NCBI GenBank assembly: GCA_002297185.1
Contig: DBJV01000071.1
Coordinates: 1 to 35,795 of the forward strand
Source: Christensenella sp. UBA767
Lineage (GTDB): Bacteria > Bacillota > Clostridia > Christensenellales > CAG-917
Direction: 5' to 3'
Length of the DNA: 35,795 nucleotides
Shown here: positions 19,101 through 27,604 of the stretch, one piece after another
Numbering within the stretch: position 1 is the stretch's first letter
How the letters are laid out: every line of letters starts with the position of its first letter
Translations under genes and position numbers: made by a program
Notes under the pieces: model-generated
The model's input: only the letters and a program-made list of their open reading frames with translations
What the model was told of the DNA's origin: nothing
The model's database searches: none

Positions 19101-19693
19101 AAACGCTCAAAGAAACAGAGGAAAGATTGCAAGAGCAGACCGTTCAACGCGACGATATCCAAAAGGCATACGACGATATCGTCACCATTATCAACGAGTT
19201 GACGGGCGAGATGCAATCCAAATTCACGGGTGCATTCGACCAAATCAGCGAGAACTTCAAAGAGGTGTTCCAACAACTCTTTGGCGGTGGTAAAGGCGAG
19301 TTGCGCCTCAATATGCAAGACACTGATGACGTGCTTGAGGCAGGTATCGACATCTACGCCCAACCCCCGGGAAAGAAATTGCAAAACATCAGTCTTTTGA
19401 GCGGTGGCGAACAAGCGTTGACGGCTATCTCGATCCTGTTTGCTATCCTCAAACTTAAACCGATGCCGTTCTGCGTGCTTGACGAAATCGAGGCAGCACT
19501 CGACGACGCCAACGTCAACTTGTTTGCGGAATTTCTCAAAAAATTCAGCGACTACACGCAATTTATCGTCATCACGCACAGAAAACCGACCATGCGCCAC
19601 GCAGATACGATTTTCGGCGTTACGATGGAAGAGAAGGGCGTCACCAAGATCGTCTCCATCGAGTTTGAAGAGGCGGCCAAACACGCAAAATAA
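16103..19693 (+). CDS. smc: Chromosome segregation protein SMC
   Basis: Walker A GPNGCGKSN, long coiled coils, hinge, signature LSGGEQALTAI and Walker B FCVLDEIEAALD. TTG start 9 nt after AAGGTGG. Confidence 0.95.
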   Translation: MLNFVKIEARGFKSFADKIEIPFQEGVTAIIGPNGCGKSNVADAIRWTLGEQSAKSLRGKNMQDVIFAGTEKRKSMSYCEVSLTFNNSDQHIFPSMPFDEVVITRKLDRSGLSEYYINHNRVRMRDIISLFHDTGIGKEGYSIIGQGRVAEIMSAKPGDRRQIFEEAAGISKFRAQRTEAERKLEKTALNLETANQVIEEIQRQINPLRKQAETAQKYFELKEELKKNEVNLYIYNYENNQSIKQRIYDRLSVCEKDLKVKEMQFNECVKKYDDCIRESAGIDRIYDECNGELLTLKVDAARLEGEAGVLRERISHIQGEITRLNSELQSIDNQLDISAQLIAKAEEKKNAEFQVYLETSKEAEALQQKYSLITKSLAGAETDLETRNSEYIRSMEDLGVLKSNLSGFIAEKGINDERAKTLLALVNQQKARLDEELTNLAIYDGNVKSTKERMRNLMTEYNEALSTKLESQEAIKGYAEDIVSLNAKLGLAKGNLDLLTSVKNEYSGYQESVKRLMQDSKHDPVLASKIWGVLAEVITVPTDFEAAIEYSLGANMQNVLVESEREASDLINYLKQKGYGRVTFRPLTSCRPRTLTPENRGILTEPGCYGLASDLVKCDKKFDKFVQTLLGATVVVNNIDNAIRIFRKYNQSVKIVTLDGEIFATGGEITGGSRRTQTRGLLTQEAKIEQAQANLEKIKNNIALLNSQREESEQELSDCEARIEALNKEMSELRIENGLNEDKAKQSFEVTESLKVEISKNAEEYEIVKARIKELEEKISSIDQLEKVVSEKREEYNALLASSKSVSTDQKSEREQMAEQVTEIKVKLAGHKSVLDGIDNDLFRYNRDREQLEDEKLDIIASLKHEQQNLDNIHNAPEKTTFSKEDEARISALEKQISDLSERKRTISDEIVSLDQEKTRLSDERSALNEKKVRDEAMLENVDIEIRNQQTHILEEYDLTYASAVEFKDPEFKAYGALTVISDLKKSINRLGDVNPLALQTLKETEERLQEQTVQRDDIQKAYDDIVTIINELTGEMQSKFTGAFDQISENFKEVFQQLFGGGKGELRLNMQDTDDVLEAGIDIYAQPPGKKLQNISLLSGGEQALTAISILFAILKLKPMPFCVLDEIEAALDDANVNLFAEFLKKFSDYTQFIVITHRKPTMRHADTIFGVTMEEKGVTKIVSIEFEEAAKHAK

Positions 19694-19884
19694 TCCTAGA
19701 TTATTTGCGCCGAATGCTAAACACGCAAAATAATCGTTGCATAGGCAACGACATCGCACCGTTCGGTGCAACGTCGAGAGCCTTGCTTGATTATTTTGCC
19801 TCTACCGCGCAACCGATATATGCTATCAGAATAAGACGGATAAAAACTCCTGCCGCAGTTTCGCTATATCGCTTGCTTGGTGTG

Positions 19885-20023
19885 TGCGCACTTCGTGCGT
19901 ATATGGAATATTCCATAACTTGTGCCTTTGGCACAAATATCACTCTCGCTTTGCGAGAATATCACTTGCGCTTTGCGCAAATATCACTGCGACGAAGTCG
20001 CAATATCACTCCCAATAGTGATA
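19885..20023 (+). repeat. Hairpin/AATATCACT phased array 1 (4 exact 9-mers, 22-bp period) with palindromic leader
   Basis: 9-mers start at 19936, 19958, 19980 and 20002. Intervening hairpins are tgtgcc/ggcaca, ctcgc/gcgag, tgcgc/gcgca and gcgac/gtcgc. Leader is TATGGAATATTCCATA (19902-19917). Confidence 0.9.
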
Positions 20024-20036
20024 AAATAGGTGAGTT

Positions 20037-21052: not shown

Positions 21053-21144
21053 GTTTCTCGTGTGGGGTATGGAGTGAAAAAATATTTATTCCATACATTA
21101 TGATAATACAATTTATATTTATATAAAATCAATAAAAATATCAG

Positions 21145-21179
21145 GGTGTCGAGCAAAAACGCTTGACACCTTTGTTTTT
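21145..21179 (+). terminator. Rho-independent terminator after ftsY, overlapping the ylxM -35
   Basis: ggtgtcgag / cttgacacc stem (one G-U pair) followed by TTTGTTTTT. Confidence 0.55.
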
Positions 21180-21191
21180 GAAGAGTATTAT
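21163..21191 (+). promoter_or_regulatory. ylxM-ffh promoter
   Basis: TTGACA (21163-21168), 17 nt, TATTAT (21186-21191). Confidence 0.5.
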
Positions 21192-24660: not shown

Positions 24661-24775
24661 CGATATCGGAATTTTCCGCAACTCGCACGAAGTGCGAATA
24701 TCACTTTTAGCCGAAGGCTAAAAATATCACTCTCGCAAAGCGAGAATATCACTTGCGCTTTGTGCAAATATCACT
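24661..24775 (+). repeat. Hairpin/AATATCACT phased array 2 (4 exact 9-mers)
   Basis: Leader is atatCGGAATTTTCCGcaact. 9-mers start at 24697, 24723, 24745 and 24767. Hairpins are cgcac/gtgcg, tttagcc/ggctaaa, ctcgc/gcgag and tgcgc/gtgca. Confidence 0.9.
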
Positions 24776-24849
24776 TTTCTCTAAATTGCCATGAGAAATG
24801 TTTATTTACTCCTCGCAATTATATTGGATAAAAGTAAAAGGATTTCGTT

Positions 24850-25692: not shown

Positions 25693-25776
25693 GTGGAGTA
25701 TTCCACAATTTGCACGCGCAGTAACGAAATGGTGGGACACCCACACCCAATGTAAATGCTATGGAATATTCCATTT

Positions 25777-25876
25777 GTCATTCCGAGGGAACGAAGTGAC
25801 CGTGGGAATCCAGCGTAGCGTTATGCGCCTACGGCTAGATTGCCACGTCGCAATATGTATTGCTCCTCGCAATGAC
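25777..25876. repeat. Pair of inverted REP-like palindromic units (BIME-like)
   Basis: Unit 1 (+) is gtcattCCgagg-N12-cgtgGGaatc (25777-25810). Unit 2 (-) is gtcattGCgagg-N17-cgtgGCaatc (25838-25876). The CC/GG versus GC/GC difference is compensatory. Confidence 0.7.
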
Positions 25877-25885
25877 ATAAGGAAG

Positions 25886-26022
25886 ATTGAAATATTCCAA
25901 AACTCGCACAAAGTGCGAATATCACTTTTTGTGAAAGCAAAAAATATCACTTGCGCTGAGCGCAAATATCACTCTCGCAACGCGAGAATATCACTGCACG
26001 TTTAGTGCAATATCGTTTCACT
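25886..26022 (+). repeat. Hairpin/AATATCACT phased array 3 (4 exact 9-mers plus 1 degenerate)
   Basis: Leader is TTGAAATATTCCAAaact. 9-mers start at 25918, 25943, 25965 and 25987, with degenerate aatatcgtttcact at 26009. Hairpins are cgcac/gtgcg, ttttgt-gaaa-gcaaaa, tgcgc/gcgca, ctcgc/gcgag and gcac/gtgc. Confidence 0.9.
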
Positions 26023-26023
26023 T

Positions 26024-26632
26024 ATGGTAAAACCTGAAGAACTAATGACGTATGAAAATCAACTTCTCGACAAAGGTTATCGCTATATTTGCGGCGTCGA
26101 TGAAGTGGGCAGAGGACCGCTTGCAGGTCCTGTTACTTGCACTGCCGTGATTATGGATTTGACCGATTTGATTGACGGCGTAAACGACAGCAAAAAGGTG
26201 AGCAAAAAGAAGAGGGAAAAACTCTTCGAAGTCATCAAATCCAAGGCGATTGCGGTATCCACCGTATCGTACGACAATCACAAAATTGATGAGATGAACA
26301 TTCTCAACGCCACAAAAGCGTGCATGGCGGAGGCAATCATGTCTCTCGACGTCAAGCCGGATATCGTAATCGTCGATGCGTTGCAACTCGATATTCCGTA
26401 TAAAACGTTCGGAATTATCCACGGCGACGCACTTTCTTATTCCATCGCGTCCGCATCCATAATCGCAAAAGTCACGAGAGACACGTATATGGAGAAGATG
26501 GCGCTCAAGTATCCTCAATACGACTTTGAACACAATATGGGTTACGGCACGGCAAAGCATATCGCAGCGCTCAAAGAGTTCGGCGCAACGCCCATTCATA
26601 GAAAGAGTTTTATAGGTAATTTCGTCAAATGA
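26024..26632 (+). CDS. rnhB: Ribonuclease HII
   Basis: GVDEVGRGPLAGPV and DSKK motifs. No SD precedes ATG 26024; an in-frame ATG at 26045 is an alternative start. Confidence 0.9.
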   Translation: MVKPEELMTYENQLLDKGYRYICGVDEVGRGPLAGPVTCTAVIMDLTDLIDGVNDSKKVSKKKREKLFEVIKSKAIAVSTVSYDNHKIDEMNILNATKACMAEAIMSLDVKPDIVIVDALQLDIPYKTFGIIHGDALSYSIASASIIAKVTRDTYMEKMALKYPQYDFEHNMGYGTAKHIAALKEFGATPIHRKSFIGNFVK

Positions 26633-27162: not shown

Positions 27163-27265
27163 TTGTTTATATATTTATTTTATGTTAATATAACACGCGT
27201 GACTCGGATGTTCCGCTGGCAAGAGAGACTTGTGTAAGAACATTTGGTAAAATTAGGAGGTCAGT
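27163..27265 (+). promoter_or_regulatory. rplS promoter and structured 5' leader (possible L19 autoregulatory leader)
   Basis: TTGTTT, 17 nt, TGTTAATAT (extended -10, 27183-27191). The ~68-nt leader has competing pairings: cgga/tccg, acac/gtgt and atgttc/gaacat. Family assignment was not verified. Confidence 0.3.
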
Positions 27266-27604
27266 ATGAACATTATCGACACAATCGAAAGAGAAGGCAT
27301 GAAACAAAACTTGCCTGTAATCGCAATCGGCGACCAAGTCAAGGTAAACGTCAAGGTCGTTGAAGGAACAAGAGAACGTATTCAAACTTACGAAGGCGTT
27401 GTCATTGCAAAGAAGAACGGCGGTATCCGTGAAACCATCGTCGTACGTCGTGTTACATTCGGCGTTGGCGTTGAAAGAACGTTCCCGATCCATTCACCCA
27501 AGATCGACAGCATCCAAGTTGTCCGTCACGGCAAAGTAAGACGCGCAAAACTTTATTACTTGAAAGAAAGAACCGGTAAAGCCGCAAAACTCAAAGAAGT
27601 CTAA
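27266..27604 (+). CDS. rplS: 50S ribosomal protein L19
   Basis: [28 protein letters not shown]...[19 protein letters not shown] is AGGAGG. Confidence 0.95.

Follow-up and report, generated by a model that had tools for sequence, protein, structure and literature searches.

Introduction

What is the run of short hairpins that ends one nucleotide before the start codon of rnhB in a Christensenella genome, with no Shine–Dalgarno (SD) sequence in between, and is it there to control the translation of that gene? The locus lies on contig DBJV01000071.1 of Christensenella sp. UBA767, a stretch of 35,795 nt which is referred to here as the window and to which all coordinates apply. The run of hairpins, called array 3, occupies the spacer between rbgA and rnhB and is one of three arrays in the window in which hairpins are joined by copies of the 9-nt linker AATATCACT. 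Our preferred reading, to which we assign a probability of roughly 0.45, is that array 3 is a mosaic repeat of the Gut-1 type, resembling the repetitive extragenic palindromic (REP) sequences and bacterial interspersed mosaic elements (BIME) of enterobacteria and the BOX elements of Streptococcus pneumoniae, which came secondarily to this spacer and displaced the SD sequence. It would be transcribed in the operon mRNA and, if it acts at all, would do so as a structured intercistronic module, and not as a dedicated regulator of rnhB, which starts at 26024 and would be initiated without an SD sequence.

Gut-1 RNA (Rfam RF01706) was described from 43 human-gut metagenome sequences and was rated as a probable non-coding RNA on the basis of covariation, with neither an organism nor a function being given (Weinberg et al., 2010; PMC2864571). 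A search of the literature for the 9-mer and for Gut-1 returned nothing relevant beyond that paper. The analysis presented here places this motif, an orphan since 2010 and listed in Rfam as a small RNA from metagenomic sequences only, in Christensenellales-like bacteria, Acutalibacteraceae and Oscillospiraceae. Features of the family make it experimentally approachable with respect to the strand that is transcribed, to a binder of AAUAUCACU or AGUGAUAUU and to mRNA stability and processing, although they do not reveal its mechanism. For annotation, the analysis accounts for an rnhB gene devoid of an SD sequence, supports the annotated start and warns of assembly breaks at repeats of this kind.

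The array preceding rnhB and its companions in the window

Direct reading resolved array 3 (25887–26022) into a palindromic leader, the tetranucleotide AACT, five hairpins, four exact linkers and a degenerate fifth linker. These parts had been listed in the first-pass annotation of this DNA, and every one of them was confirmed to the base:

25887–25900, + strand: leader, the palindrome TTGAAATATTCCAA of the GGAATATTCC type (direct reading)
25901–25904, + strand: AACT half-linker between the leader and hairpin 1, kept in all three window arrays and included in the scan pattern ATTCCnnAACT
25905–26008, + strand: five hairpins and four exact AATATCACT linkers (reading, folding, Rfam Gut-1 match and family covariation)
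25905–25917, + strand: hairpin 1, CGCAC-AAA-GTGCG (reading)
25927–25942, + strand: hairpin 2, TTTTGT-GAAA-GCAAAA (reading)
25952–25964, + strand: hairpin 3, TGCGC-TGA-GCGCA (reading)
25974–25986, + strand: hairpin 4, CTCGC-AAC-GCGAG (reading)
25996–26008, + strand: hairpin 5, GCAC-GTTTA-GTGC (reading)
25918, 25943, 25965 and 25987 (starts), + strand: exact AATATCACT linkers (reading)
26009–26022, + strand: degenerate last linker AATATCGTTTCACT (AATATC + GTTT + CACT), identical in L145–L148, which are other samples of the same species
26024–26632, + strand: rnhB, encoding RNase HII of 202 amino acids, start ATG 26024, no SD sequence (Pfam PF01351, E = 2.3e-36; N-terminal conservation)

The degenerate linker is followed by T 26023 and then by the ATG at 26024, so that the end of the linker is 1 nt short of the start codon, and the 20 nt upstream of this ATG contain no GGAGG-like purine run that could serve as the SD sequence, as had been noted before. 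When folded, as had been suggested, the array region proved far more stable than shuffled sequences on either strand (z = −3.7 for the + strand RNA, −4.1 for the − strand RNA and −4.6 for the + strand DNA); the predicted pairing around the rnhB AUG is weak and is not conserved.

The 9-mer AATATCACT occurs exactly 12 times in the 35.8 kb, always on the + strand and always inside one of the three arrays, with linker spans of 19936–20010, 24697–24775 and 25918–25995. With up to one mismatch allowed, 18 matches are found against 7.7 expected, a number reached by none of 100 shuffles, and the + strand of all three arrays folds with z-scores of −3.7 to −6.3 relative to shuffles. The linker scan bears out the earlier proposal that the arrays belong to one family, sharing both their strand and the order from leader to units. 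Chance and simple tandem slippage are rejected as their origin by these shuffle statistics together with the family-wide covariation described below, which upholds the earlier argument against random accumulation. The two companions of array 3 are as follows:

19902–20010, + strand: array 1, with leader TATGGAATATTCCAT, AACT, four hairpins and four exact linkers (linker scan, reading and Gut-1 match)
24668–24775, + strand: array 2, with leader GGAATTTTCC, AACT, four hairpins and four exact linkers (linker scan, reading and Gut-1 match)

Array 1 is located upstream of ftsY (ATG 20037), and its last linker can pair with AGTGATA at 20017–20023. Array 2 sits between the trmD stop codon (24659) and the TTG start of rbgA (24850), and over its first 59 nt it shares 78% identity with array 3. 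The flanking genes encode, as had been assumed, SMC, FtsY, TrmD, an RbgA-like GTPase, RNase HII and a UPF0102 protein.

Relationship to Gut-1 RNA

In gathering mode, a search of the window against Rfam returned the signal recognition particle (SRP) RNA and one tRNA only, and no Gut-1. At the E-value threshold, all three arrays matched RF01706 over model positions 1–77 on the minus strand: array 3 at 25939–26018 (49.2 bits, E = 1.2e-7), array 2 at 24693–24776 (45.7 bits, E = 8.9e-7) and array 1 at 19954–20029 (35.5 bits, E = 3.3e-4), none of which attains the gathering score of 50 bits. Relatives lie above this threshold (62.5 bits for L086, 59.2 and 52.0 bits for L005 and 50.9 bits for L067), all of them with the linker AGTGATATT. 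Each window array also comprises at least three short hairpins with a conserved GUGA(A/U)AU-type linker, the stems covary across 59 distinct units of the family, as is characteristic of Gut-1, and the seed alignment of 2010 has the same layout of terminator, left half, centre and right half that is found in most other carriers (see below). Since the window arrays match just under the gathering score and loci with the same linker exceed it, comparison of the sequences identifies them as a near-threshold variant of a known orphan motif.

Like the window arrays, Gut-1 is made up of successive short hairpins with a conserved linker between them, and comes from uncultured gut bacteria. The Rfam consensus linker is GUGAAAU, as opposed to GUGAUAU in the window (reverse complement AUAUCAC), and the window arrays differ further in their four or five hairpins, in the GGAATATTCC leader and in having no inverted partner half; moreover, Rfam models the opposite strand. 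The description of 2010 is without organism, function, copy number, or bipartite or mosaic architecture. New for the family are the lineages that host it, the fixed size and high number of its copies, the junction palindrome, the exchange of units, the long-range helix and the promoter-like centre.

Two other identities were rejected. CRISPR arrays were judged by repeats of 23–50 nt, unique nonpalindromic spacers of similar length, a leader and nearby cas genes; here, the repeat measures 9 nt, the spacers are palindromes of 11–17 nt that recur between arrays, neither cas nor any other family occurs in more than 12 of 120 array loci, and no cas gene is present among the nine window open reading frames (ORFs) scanned beside the arrays. 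Intrinsic terminators do not fit either, as the hairpins are followed by AAUAUCACU and the + strand has only a weak 5-bp site at 25995–26009.

A defined high-copy element with covarying hairpins

A scan of one genome per species for three consecutive linkers recovered at least 120 loci, nearly all of them in metagenome-assembled genomes of gut or rumen Clostridia; carriers among the loci listed include Acutalibacteraceae, Oscillospiraceae, Faecousia and Christensenellaceae. Two loci labelled as Butyrivibrio crossotus (L035 and L049, CAVANK01) share the smc–ftsY spacer and repeat modules with the window lineage, and the label of this bin may be wrong. In a metagenome scan for the window-type leader followed by two linkers, 81 arrays were found at about 66 distinct loci; exactly four linkers are present in 65 of the 81, giving an element of about 100 nt, and a single 184-kb contig holds at least ten strict copies. 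This fixed four-linker size and the copy number point to a defined high-copy element and not to an open-ended array. Barring a few artefacts of ORF calling, all copies are intergenic, as expected of high-copy extragenic palindromic units of the REP/BIME kind. Hairpins measure 11–17 nt and the linker-to-linker spacing is 20–27 bp across the family, and the linker is conserved across orders. A typical element is composed of a GGAATATTCC-type leader, AACT and four hairpin–linker units in about 100 nt, each unit being a covarying hairpin and an invariant 9-nt linker.

The hairpins show a strong signature of selection. In 246 unique spacers, Watson–Crick pairs account for 94% of the first five stem positions, compared with 27% after shuffling. 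Among 59 distinct 13-nt spacers, 98% of the stem positions pair, against 59% in shuffles (0 of 500), and 118 double-sided pair changes were counted where 30 were expected, affecting four of the five pairs (0 of 500 shuffles); when the partner column was slid, pairing fell to 41% or less. Stems that covary to this extent show that the hairpins are selected as single-strand structures, while the linker stays invariant.

No protein family recurs beside the arrays in more than 12 of 120 loci, as assessed by all-against-all clustering of 1709 ORFs. A phage origin was likewise rejected, since 2.9 million viral contigs contain only one true element, the other 14 matches being unrelated tandem repeats.

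The start of rnhB and the origin of array 3

In view of the missing SD sequence, the first-pass annotation had offered the in-frame ATG at 26045 as an alternative start of rnhB. This proposal fails on the N-terminal alignment of 16 homologues (78–96% identity), in which Met1 is nearly invariant and residues 2–7 (V/I-K/D/R-P/A-E/K/Q-E/D-L) are conserved; ATG 26045 corresponds to codon 8, and residue 8 is Leu in two homologues (P0064 and P0069). Longer rnhB gene calls (209–234 amino acids) are upstream extensions into nonhomologous sequence. Because Met1 and residues 2–7 are conserved and Met8 is not, the alignment identifies ATG 26024 as the start of rnhB. No promoter-like site was found in the rbgA–rnhB spacer, nor inside any of the window arrays, and the only + strand terminator-like site in the spacer is a weak one with a 5-bp stem, formed by the last array hairpin (25995–26009); for this reason, rnhB most likely shares a transcript with rbgA, the array forming part of its 5' region.

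The gene order smc-ftsY-ylxM-ffh-rpsP-KH-rimM-trmD-rbgA-rnhB-yraN-rplS is kept in relatives with 80–90% identical RnhB; the window RnhB is 85% identical to that of one named member of the Christensenellales, and the gene order is common to GCA_019973095.1. The rbgA–rnhB spacers of these relatives compare as follows:

L143 and L144: 24 nt, no array, SD sequence AAAGGTGA
L125: 35 nt, no array, SD sequence GAAGGTGA
L126: 73 nt, no array, SD sequence AAAGGA
L121, L122 and L123: about 95–245 nt, no array, SD sequence present
L124 and L127: remnant of one to two units, AAATCACT-CTCGCagtGCGAG-AATATAGG-TGCATCtttGATGCA, no SD sequence

As the array-less relatives have a normal SD sequence, the array is a secondary acquisition and not a conserved regulator of rnhB, and it has replaced the ribosome-binding site of rnhB in this lineage. 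These seven relatives weaken the earlier idea of the array as a translational device for rnhB, and a role specific to rnhB also sits poorly with the presence of the same element in dozens of unrelated spacers, most often with a normal SD sequence ahead of the next gene.

Turnover is also visible at the other two arrays. Among the relatives compared, the trmD–rbgA array is found only in the window's own species, and the smc–ftsY spacer carries arrays in the window, L121, L126 and L035, with none in other lineages. In four other samples of the window's species arrays 2 and 3 are unchanged. In L145, in which RnhB is identical, array 1 (positions 1–291, corresponding to window 19860–20036) has the same 3' units and a different 5' half, made of a module resembling a miniature inverted-repeat transposable element (MITE), a GGAATTATCC leader and two units like those of array 3; this hybrid shows that units are exchanged between arrays and is evidence of recombination between them. 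In L146 and L148 the assembly breaks off right at the leader, in keeping with a repeat.

The 331-nt rbgA–rnhB spacer is itself a mosaic of a GTGGG-ACA-CCCAC module, a 100-nt MITE-like module and the array, with three GGAATATTCC-type palindromes (25694, 25762 and 25888) in between. The modules ahead of the array are:

25694–25773, no strand assigned: two GGAATATTCC-type palindromes (25694–25705 and 25762–25773), module junctions of the mosaic spacer, bracketing the hairpin GTGGG-ACA-CCCAC (25732–25744)
25777–25876, no strand assigned: MITE-like 100-nt module with the 12-nt inverted ends GTCATTCCGAGG and CCTCGCAATGAC, directly upstream of the array 3 leader

With up to one mismatch, the palindrome TGGAATATTCCA occurs four times in the window (19904, 25694, 25762 and 25888), only in array-bearing spacers; with up to two mismatches there are seven matches, a number that no shuffle reaches. 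A GGAATATTCC-type leader motif precedes the 81 metagenomic arrays, for which the scan had used that leader. The TGGAATATTCCA palindrome forms the junction between different repeat modules and may be a site of recombination or insertion. The hairpin module GTGGG-ACA-CCCAC (gggacacccacaccc) recurs beside the junction palindrome in L106, L122, L145, L159, L171 and L187, as a third repeat family, and copies or ends of the MITE-like module (…gggaatccagcgtagcg…, …cctcgcaatgacataagg…) lie upstream of leaders in L049, L106, L145, L150, L159, L178 and others, with a fragment at window 24806–24824. No clean pair of empty and filled sites with a target duplication was found among the rbgA–rnhB relatives and samples compared.

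Genomic placement and proposed role

The placement of the family was analysed at 66 window-type loci, with genes called by a dicodon model that was checked against called genes. At 40 loci the gene ahead of the leader runs in the direction of the AATATCACT strand, compared with 17 at which it does not (p = 0.003), and convergent contexts outnumber divergent ones by 17 to 4 (p = 0.007), divergent-promoter regions being avoided. The last linker is often 24–33 nt before a start codon, with an ordinary SD sequence between the two, or within about 50 nt of the end of a convergent gene or of a terminator. As judged by this analysis, the placement is that of REP/BIME elements, after genes or within operons and in transcribed extragenic space, as opposed to promoter regions.

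On our preferred reading of array 3 as a secondary mosaic repeat, the array, having arrived with other repeat modules in the rbgA–rnhB spacer and taken the place of the SD sequence, would be transcribed inside the ffh…trmD-rbgA-rnhB operon mRNA as AAUAUCACU-linked hairpins. The hairpins could act as exonuclease barriers and the AU-rich single-stranded linkers as possible endonuclease sites, making of the array a structured intercistronic or 3' untranslated region (UTR) module like REP/BIME or BOX, and not one dedicated to rnhB. Initiation at rnhB would need no SD sequence and would proceed from the AU-rich tail, which is unstructured. A trans-acting partner that reads linker and hairpin together may be postulated because the linker is exactly conserved across orders.

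The choice of the AAUAUCACU strand, in the window that of the mRNA, is suggested by the orientation bias relative to upstream genes, by the C(GAA)G, C(GTA)G, C(GCA)G and GNRA-type loops that it carries in both halves of the bipartite elements described below, and by a weak excess of G·T over A·C (26:13, or 20:12 without the loop-closing position). Several observations nevertheless weigh against the reading that we prefer. In tandem contexts, the arrays are sense in 18 cases and antisense in 11, which is not significant. On the strand modelled by Rfam, each hairpin gains U–A, U·G and A–U pairs from the linker ends, which leaves a 3-nt junction corresponding exactly to the variable part of the linker, and the minus-strand RNA of array 3 is more stable than the plus-strand RNA (−51 versus −42.5 kcal/mol). 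The stems contain about 2% G·U, and the C(GNA)G triloops and a conserved GCGAAGC unit would suit hairpins of single-stranded DNA; indeed, GNA triloops closed by C–G and the d(GCGAAGC) mini-hairpin are especially stable in DNA. The conservation of the linker across orders, unlike that of typical REP families, points to a host function more specific than that of a generic stabilizer. Finally, transcription of the arrays, their processing and an effect on stability are features that we infer from their sequence.

Comparison with known repeat systems

The closest parallels are provided by REP/BIME elements and by REPINs, which are likewise high-copy extragenic palindromes arranged in mosaics with conserved linking motifs. 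REP/BIME elements also lie after genes or within operons and rarely between divergent genes, occur as inverted doublets and turn over between relatives. The window family differs in that its units are direct within an array instead of alternating, and in that its hairpins are short (11–17 nt) and variable while the linker is invariant and conserved across orders. REP/BIME elements are associated with RAYT proteins, whereas for this family the 1.07 Mb searched contained only one RAYT-like ORF (L045, 61.5 versus 80 bits), which is not flanked by arrays.

BOX elements of S. pneumoniae, with their boxA-(boxB)n-boxC organization, similarly combine a head and a tail with tandem internal units, variable in number, between the two; they too are intergenic, are predicted to be highly structured, are often near start codons and are suspected of affecting the expression of their neighbours. 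There is no sequence relation, BOX units measure 45–59 nt as compared with 22 nt, and the window family is mostly fixed at four units. In the Neisseria intergenic mosaic elements (NIMEs), the dRS3 junction ATTCCC-N8-GGGAAT flanks intergenic mosaic elements. The window family has a comparable short palindromic junction, GGAATATTCC, between interchangeable intergenic modules, although sequences and taxa differ and no recombinase or phage is linked to the junction. Sponge RNAs such as CsrB/RsmZ and CrcZ share with the arrays the repetition of an identical short motif within a scaffold of hairpins; in the window family, the motif is between the hairpins and not in their loops, and there is no GGA or A-rich Hfq motif.

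The bipartite form of the element in other genomes

In most other genomes the element has two halves, and the units are direct repeats within each array and are inverted only between halves. The order is an upstream gene or tRNA operon, a terminator or long hairpin, the left half, the centre AGTTnnnnGGCGAATAN and the right half; the left half consists of hairpins with AGTGATATT-type linkers, which is the part modelled by Rfam, and the right half of hairpins with AATATCACT. A 9-nt complementarity links the left end NTATTCGCC to the centre GGCGAATAN' over a distance of about 71 nt (for example at L007 7422–7514; elements in L003–L115), and the two covary in three states (A:T 30, T:A 22 and C:G 17), with 2 of 71 discordant. 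This long-range helix, which the Rfam Gut-1 model does not include, cannot form together with hairpin 1 of that model.

On the bottom strand, the centre and the first right unit form a predicted sigma-A-like promoter, TTGAAA/G, 16–17 nt and TGaTATTnT (for example L007 7513–7541 minus), recognized from consensus matches only; TG is present in 81 of 84 centres and the −35 hexamer matches at four or more of six positions in 55 of 84, against a background of 12%. The top-strand TA(T/A/G)AAT overlaps it in such a way that A(−11) and T(−7) pair reciprocally, which corresponds to the published 18-bp bidirectional-promoter geometry of overlapping −10 hexamers (PMC10268837). The window arrays are without this centre promoter, their homologous hexamers being TGGAAT, TGAAAT and CGGAAT, none of which has A at position 2. 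Terminator-like sites are only weakly enriched beyond the left half (16 of 79 versus a background of 9.5%) on the strand running into the left array.

In 57 cases, against 17, a bipartite element is preceded by the 3' end of a co-oriented gene or tRNA operon, as a rule at a distance of about 40 nt. At 11 loci the right array starts 124–132 nt after the last tRNA and is always co-oriented. In L005, L007, L011, L015, L022, L023, L026, L051, L052, L075 and L093, bipartite elements are placed immediately behind the bidirectional terminator of tRNA operons that end in Thr, Tyr, Glu, Asn, Cys, Gln, Arg or Leu, always in the orientation of the operon, and the T-run of the terminator joins straight to CAGTTATATTCGCC. 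This association was discarded as relevant to the window, the only tRNA of which is at 2827–2900.

A more far-reaching proposal, which we consider doubtful as a whole, would unite these observations. Gut-1 would be a conserved modular platform that displays an invariant single-stranded 9-nt word between covarying hairpins to a trans-acting factor spanning orders. In its full form, two arrays would diverge from a symmetric bidirectional promoter built of the repeat itself, the left array being closed by the covarying 9-bp helix in competition with a local hairpin, and promoter-less single arrays would have been co-opted into operons, one of them replacing an SD sequence so that rnhB initiates independently of it.

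Alternative explanations

The arrays might instead be trans-acting small RNAs, or modules cut from operon transcripts, that present four or five identical single-stranded 9-mers between hairpins as a multivalent platform, an explanation that we regard as unlikely. The platform could be a protein sponge like CsrB or CrcZ, or a series of repeated seeds pairing with AGUGAUAUU-like ribosome-binding regions; in the bipartite elements, each half would form a transcription unit of its own. A role in trans agrees with the invariance of the linker across orders and with the covariation on which Gut-1 was classed among the non-coding RNAs (Weinberg et al., 2010; PMC2864571). The sigma-A-like promoter in the 84 bipartite centres, with its bidirectional geometry, would provide for transcription of such RNAs, but the hexamers of the window arrays yield no promoter and the 5' arm of the NTATTCGCC/GGCGAATAN' helix, which is concordant in 69 of 71 elements, would fall upstream of the predicted start site. 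Similarly, many arrays are followed by intrinsic terminators, yet beyond the left half terminator-like sites show only a weak enrichment. As to targets, the linker has AUCAC in common with the 16S rRNA 3' end (…GGAUCACCUCC), a resemblance of 5 nt that would arise by chance in about 4% of cases by our own estimate, and AGUGAUAUU-like sites are not enriched at the start codons of the window.

Improbable too is the view that the element works as single-stranded DNA, a selfish or domesticated repeat like REP or REPIN that is moved by an HUH enzyme of the Y1/RAYT type, or by a recombinase at the GGAATATTCC junction, with the RNA structure being incidental. The inverted array pairs do resemble REPIN doublets, and the near-perfect Watson–Crick stems with few G·U pairs, the C(GAA)G and C(GTA)G triloops and the GCGAAGC unit would be suited to such a molecule. 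Mobility would also be in keeping with presence/absence polymorphism, with tandem duplication and the shuffling of units between arrays, and with the joining of different modules to arrays at the same palindrome; on the other hand, no clean empty/filled pair with a target duplication was recovered, no protein family is enriched beside the arrays and a single true copy is present in 2.9 million viral contigs. A candidate enzyme was sought by tblastn with approximate Y1 and RAYT queries in the 1.07 Mb of array loci. One carrier genome has a RAYT-like ORF (L045 3–470, NF047646, E = 7.8e-17); this match is sub-threshold (61.5 versus 80 bits), is 7 kb from an array, is not flanked by arrays and, as the only one in 1.07 Mb, is at the level of chance placement; a link to RAYT was set aside. 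Also speaking against this view are the conservation of the linker across orders, REP families usually differing between species, and the persistence of elements at orthologous tRNA-operon ends with compensatory changes.

That array 3 is a translational control device for rnhB, with a start context dependent on folding or with rnhB kept at a low level, is distinctly less probable. The abutment of the array on ATG 26024 without an SD sequence prompted this idea, and the SD-less arrangement is kept together with an array remnant in L124 and L127 and is identical in four other samples of the species; the array is, however, absent from most orthologous spacers. The last hairpin and AUAUCGUUUC make up a weak terminator-like site, which would agree with the idea. 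Against it, the same element recurs in either orientation at places unrelated to rnhB, for the most part followed by a normal SD sequence, and the pairing predicted in the region of the AUG is weak and not conserved.

Least of all do we favour double-stranded binding sites for a transcription factor or nucleoid protein, in the manner of iterons: exact 9-bp direct repeats at a 22–25-bp spacing lie about two helical turns apart, and many arrays of other genomes lie directly against the −35 hexamer of the promoter that follows, but this is very unlikely because the arms of the palindromic spacers covary as hairpins while their sequence changes, for which a binder of duplex DNA would not select, and also given that the spacing drifts between 20 and 27 bp and that arrays lie in operons and 3' UTRs and avoid divergent promoter regions.

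Other features of the window

Upstream of ylxM/ffh, a terminator-like hairpin at 21143–21172 overlaps a strong promoter-like site, TTGACA-17 nt-TATTAT (21163–21191); judging from these motifs, the site at 21143–21191 is likely to mark where the operon with arrays 2 and 3 begins. Within it, rbgA probably starts at TTG 24850, preceded by AAAGGA, and relatives have ATG at the aligned position (L124: ATGaacattcaatggtttccc); some rbgA gene calls begin 27 nt downstream of this TTG. Just before rplS (27266–27604), a sub-threshold match to the L19 leader (RF00556; 28.5 versus 36 bits) was found at 27207–27246.

In the region of array 1, a direct repeat, GC(C/T)AAACACGCAAAATAATC, extends across the smc stop codon (window 19676–19735), and conserved blocks (…ctgccgcagtttcgc…cgcttgcttgg…) are present in the spacer upstream of ftsY, a comparison that took in the smc–ftsY spacers of L121–L127, and are duplicated in L121, L122 and L124. 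Near the beginning of the window, a tandem repeat of period 43 (2.4 copies, 95% identical) is located at 604–708, about 115 nt after the SRP RNA (226–489) and past the terminator-like hairpin of that RNA; the string ATATCGTTT inside it is also that of the degenerate linker which closes array 3, probably by coincidence.

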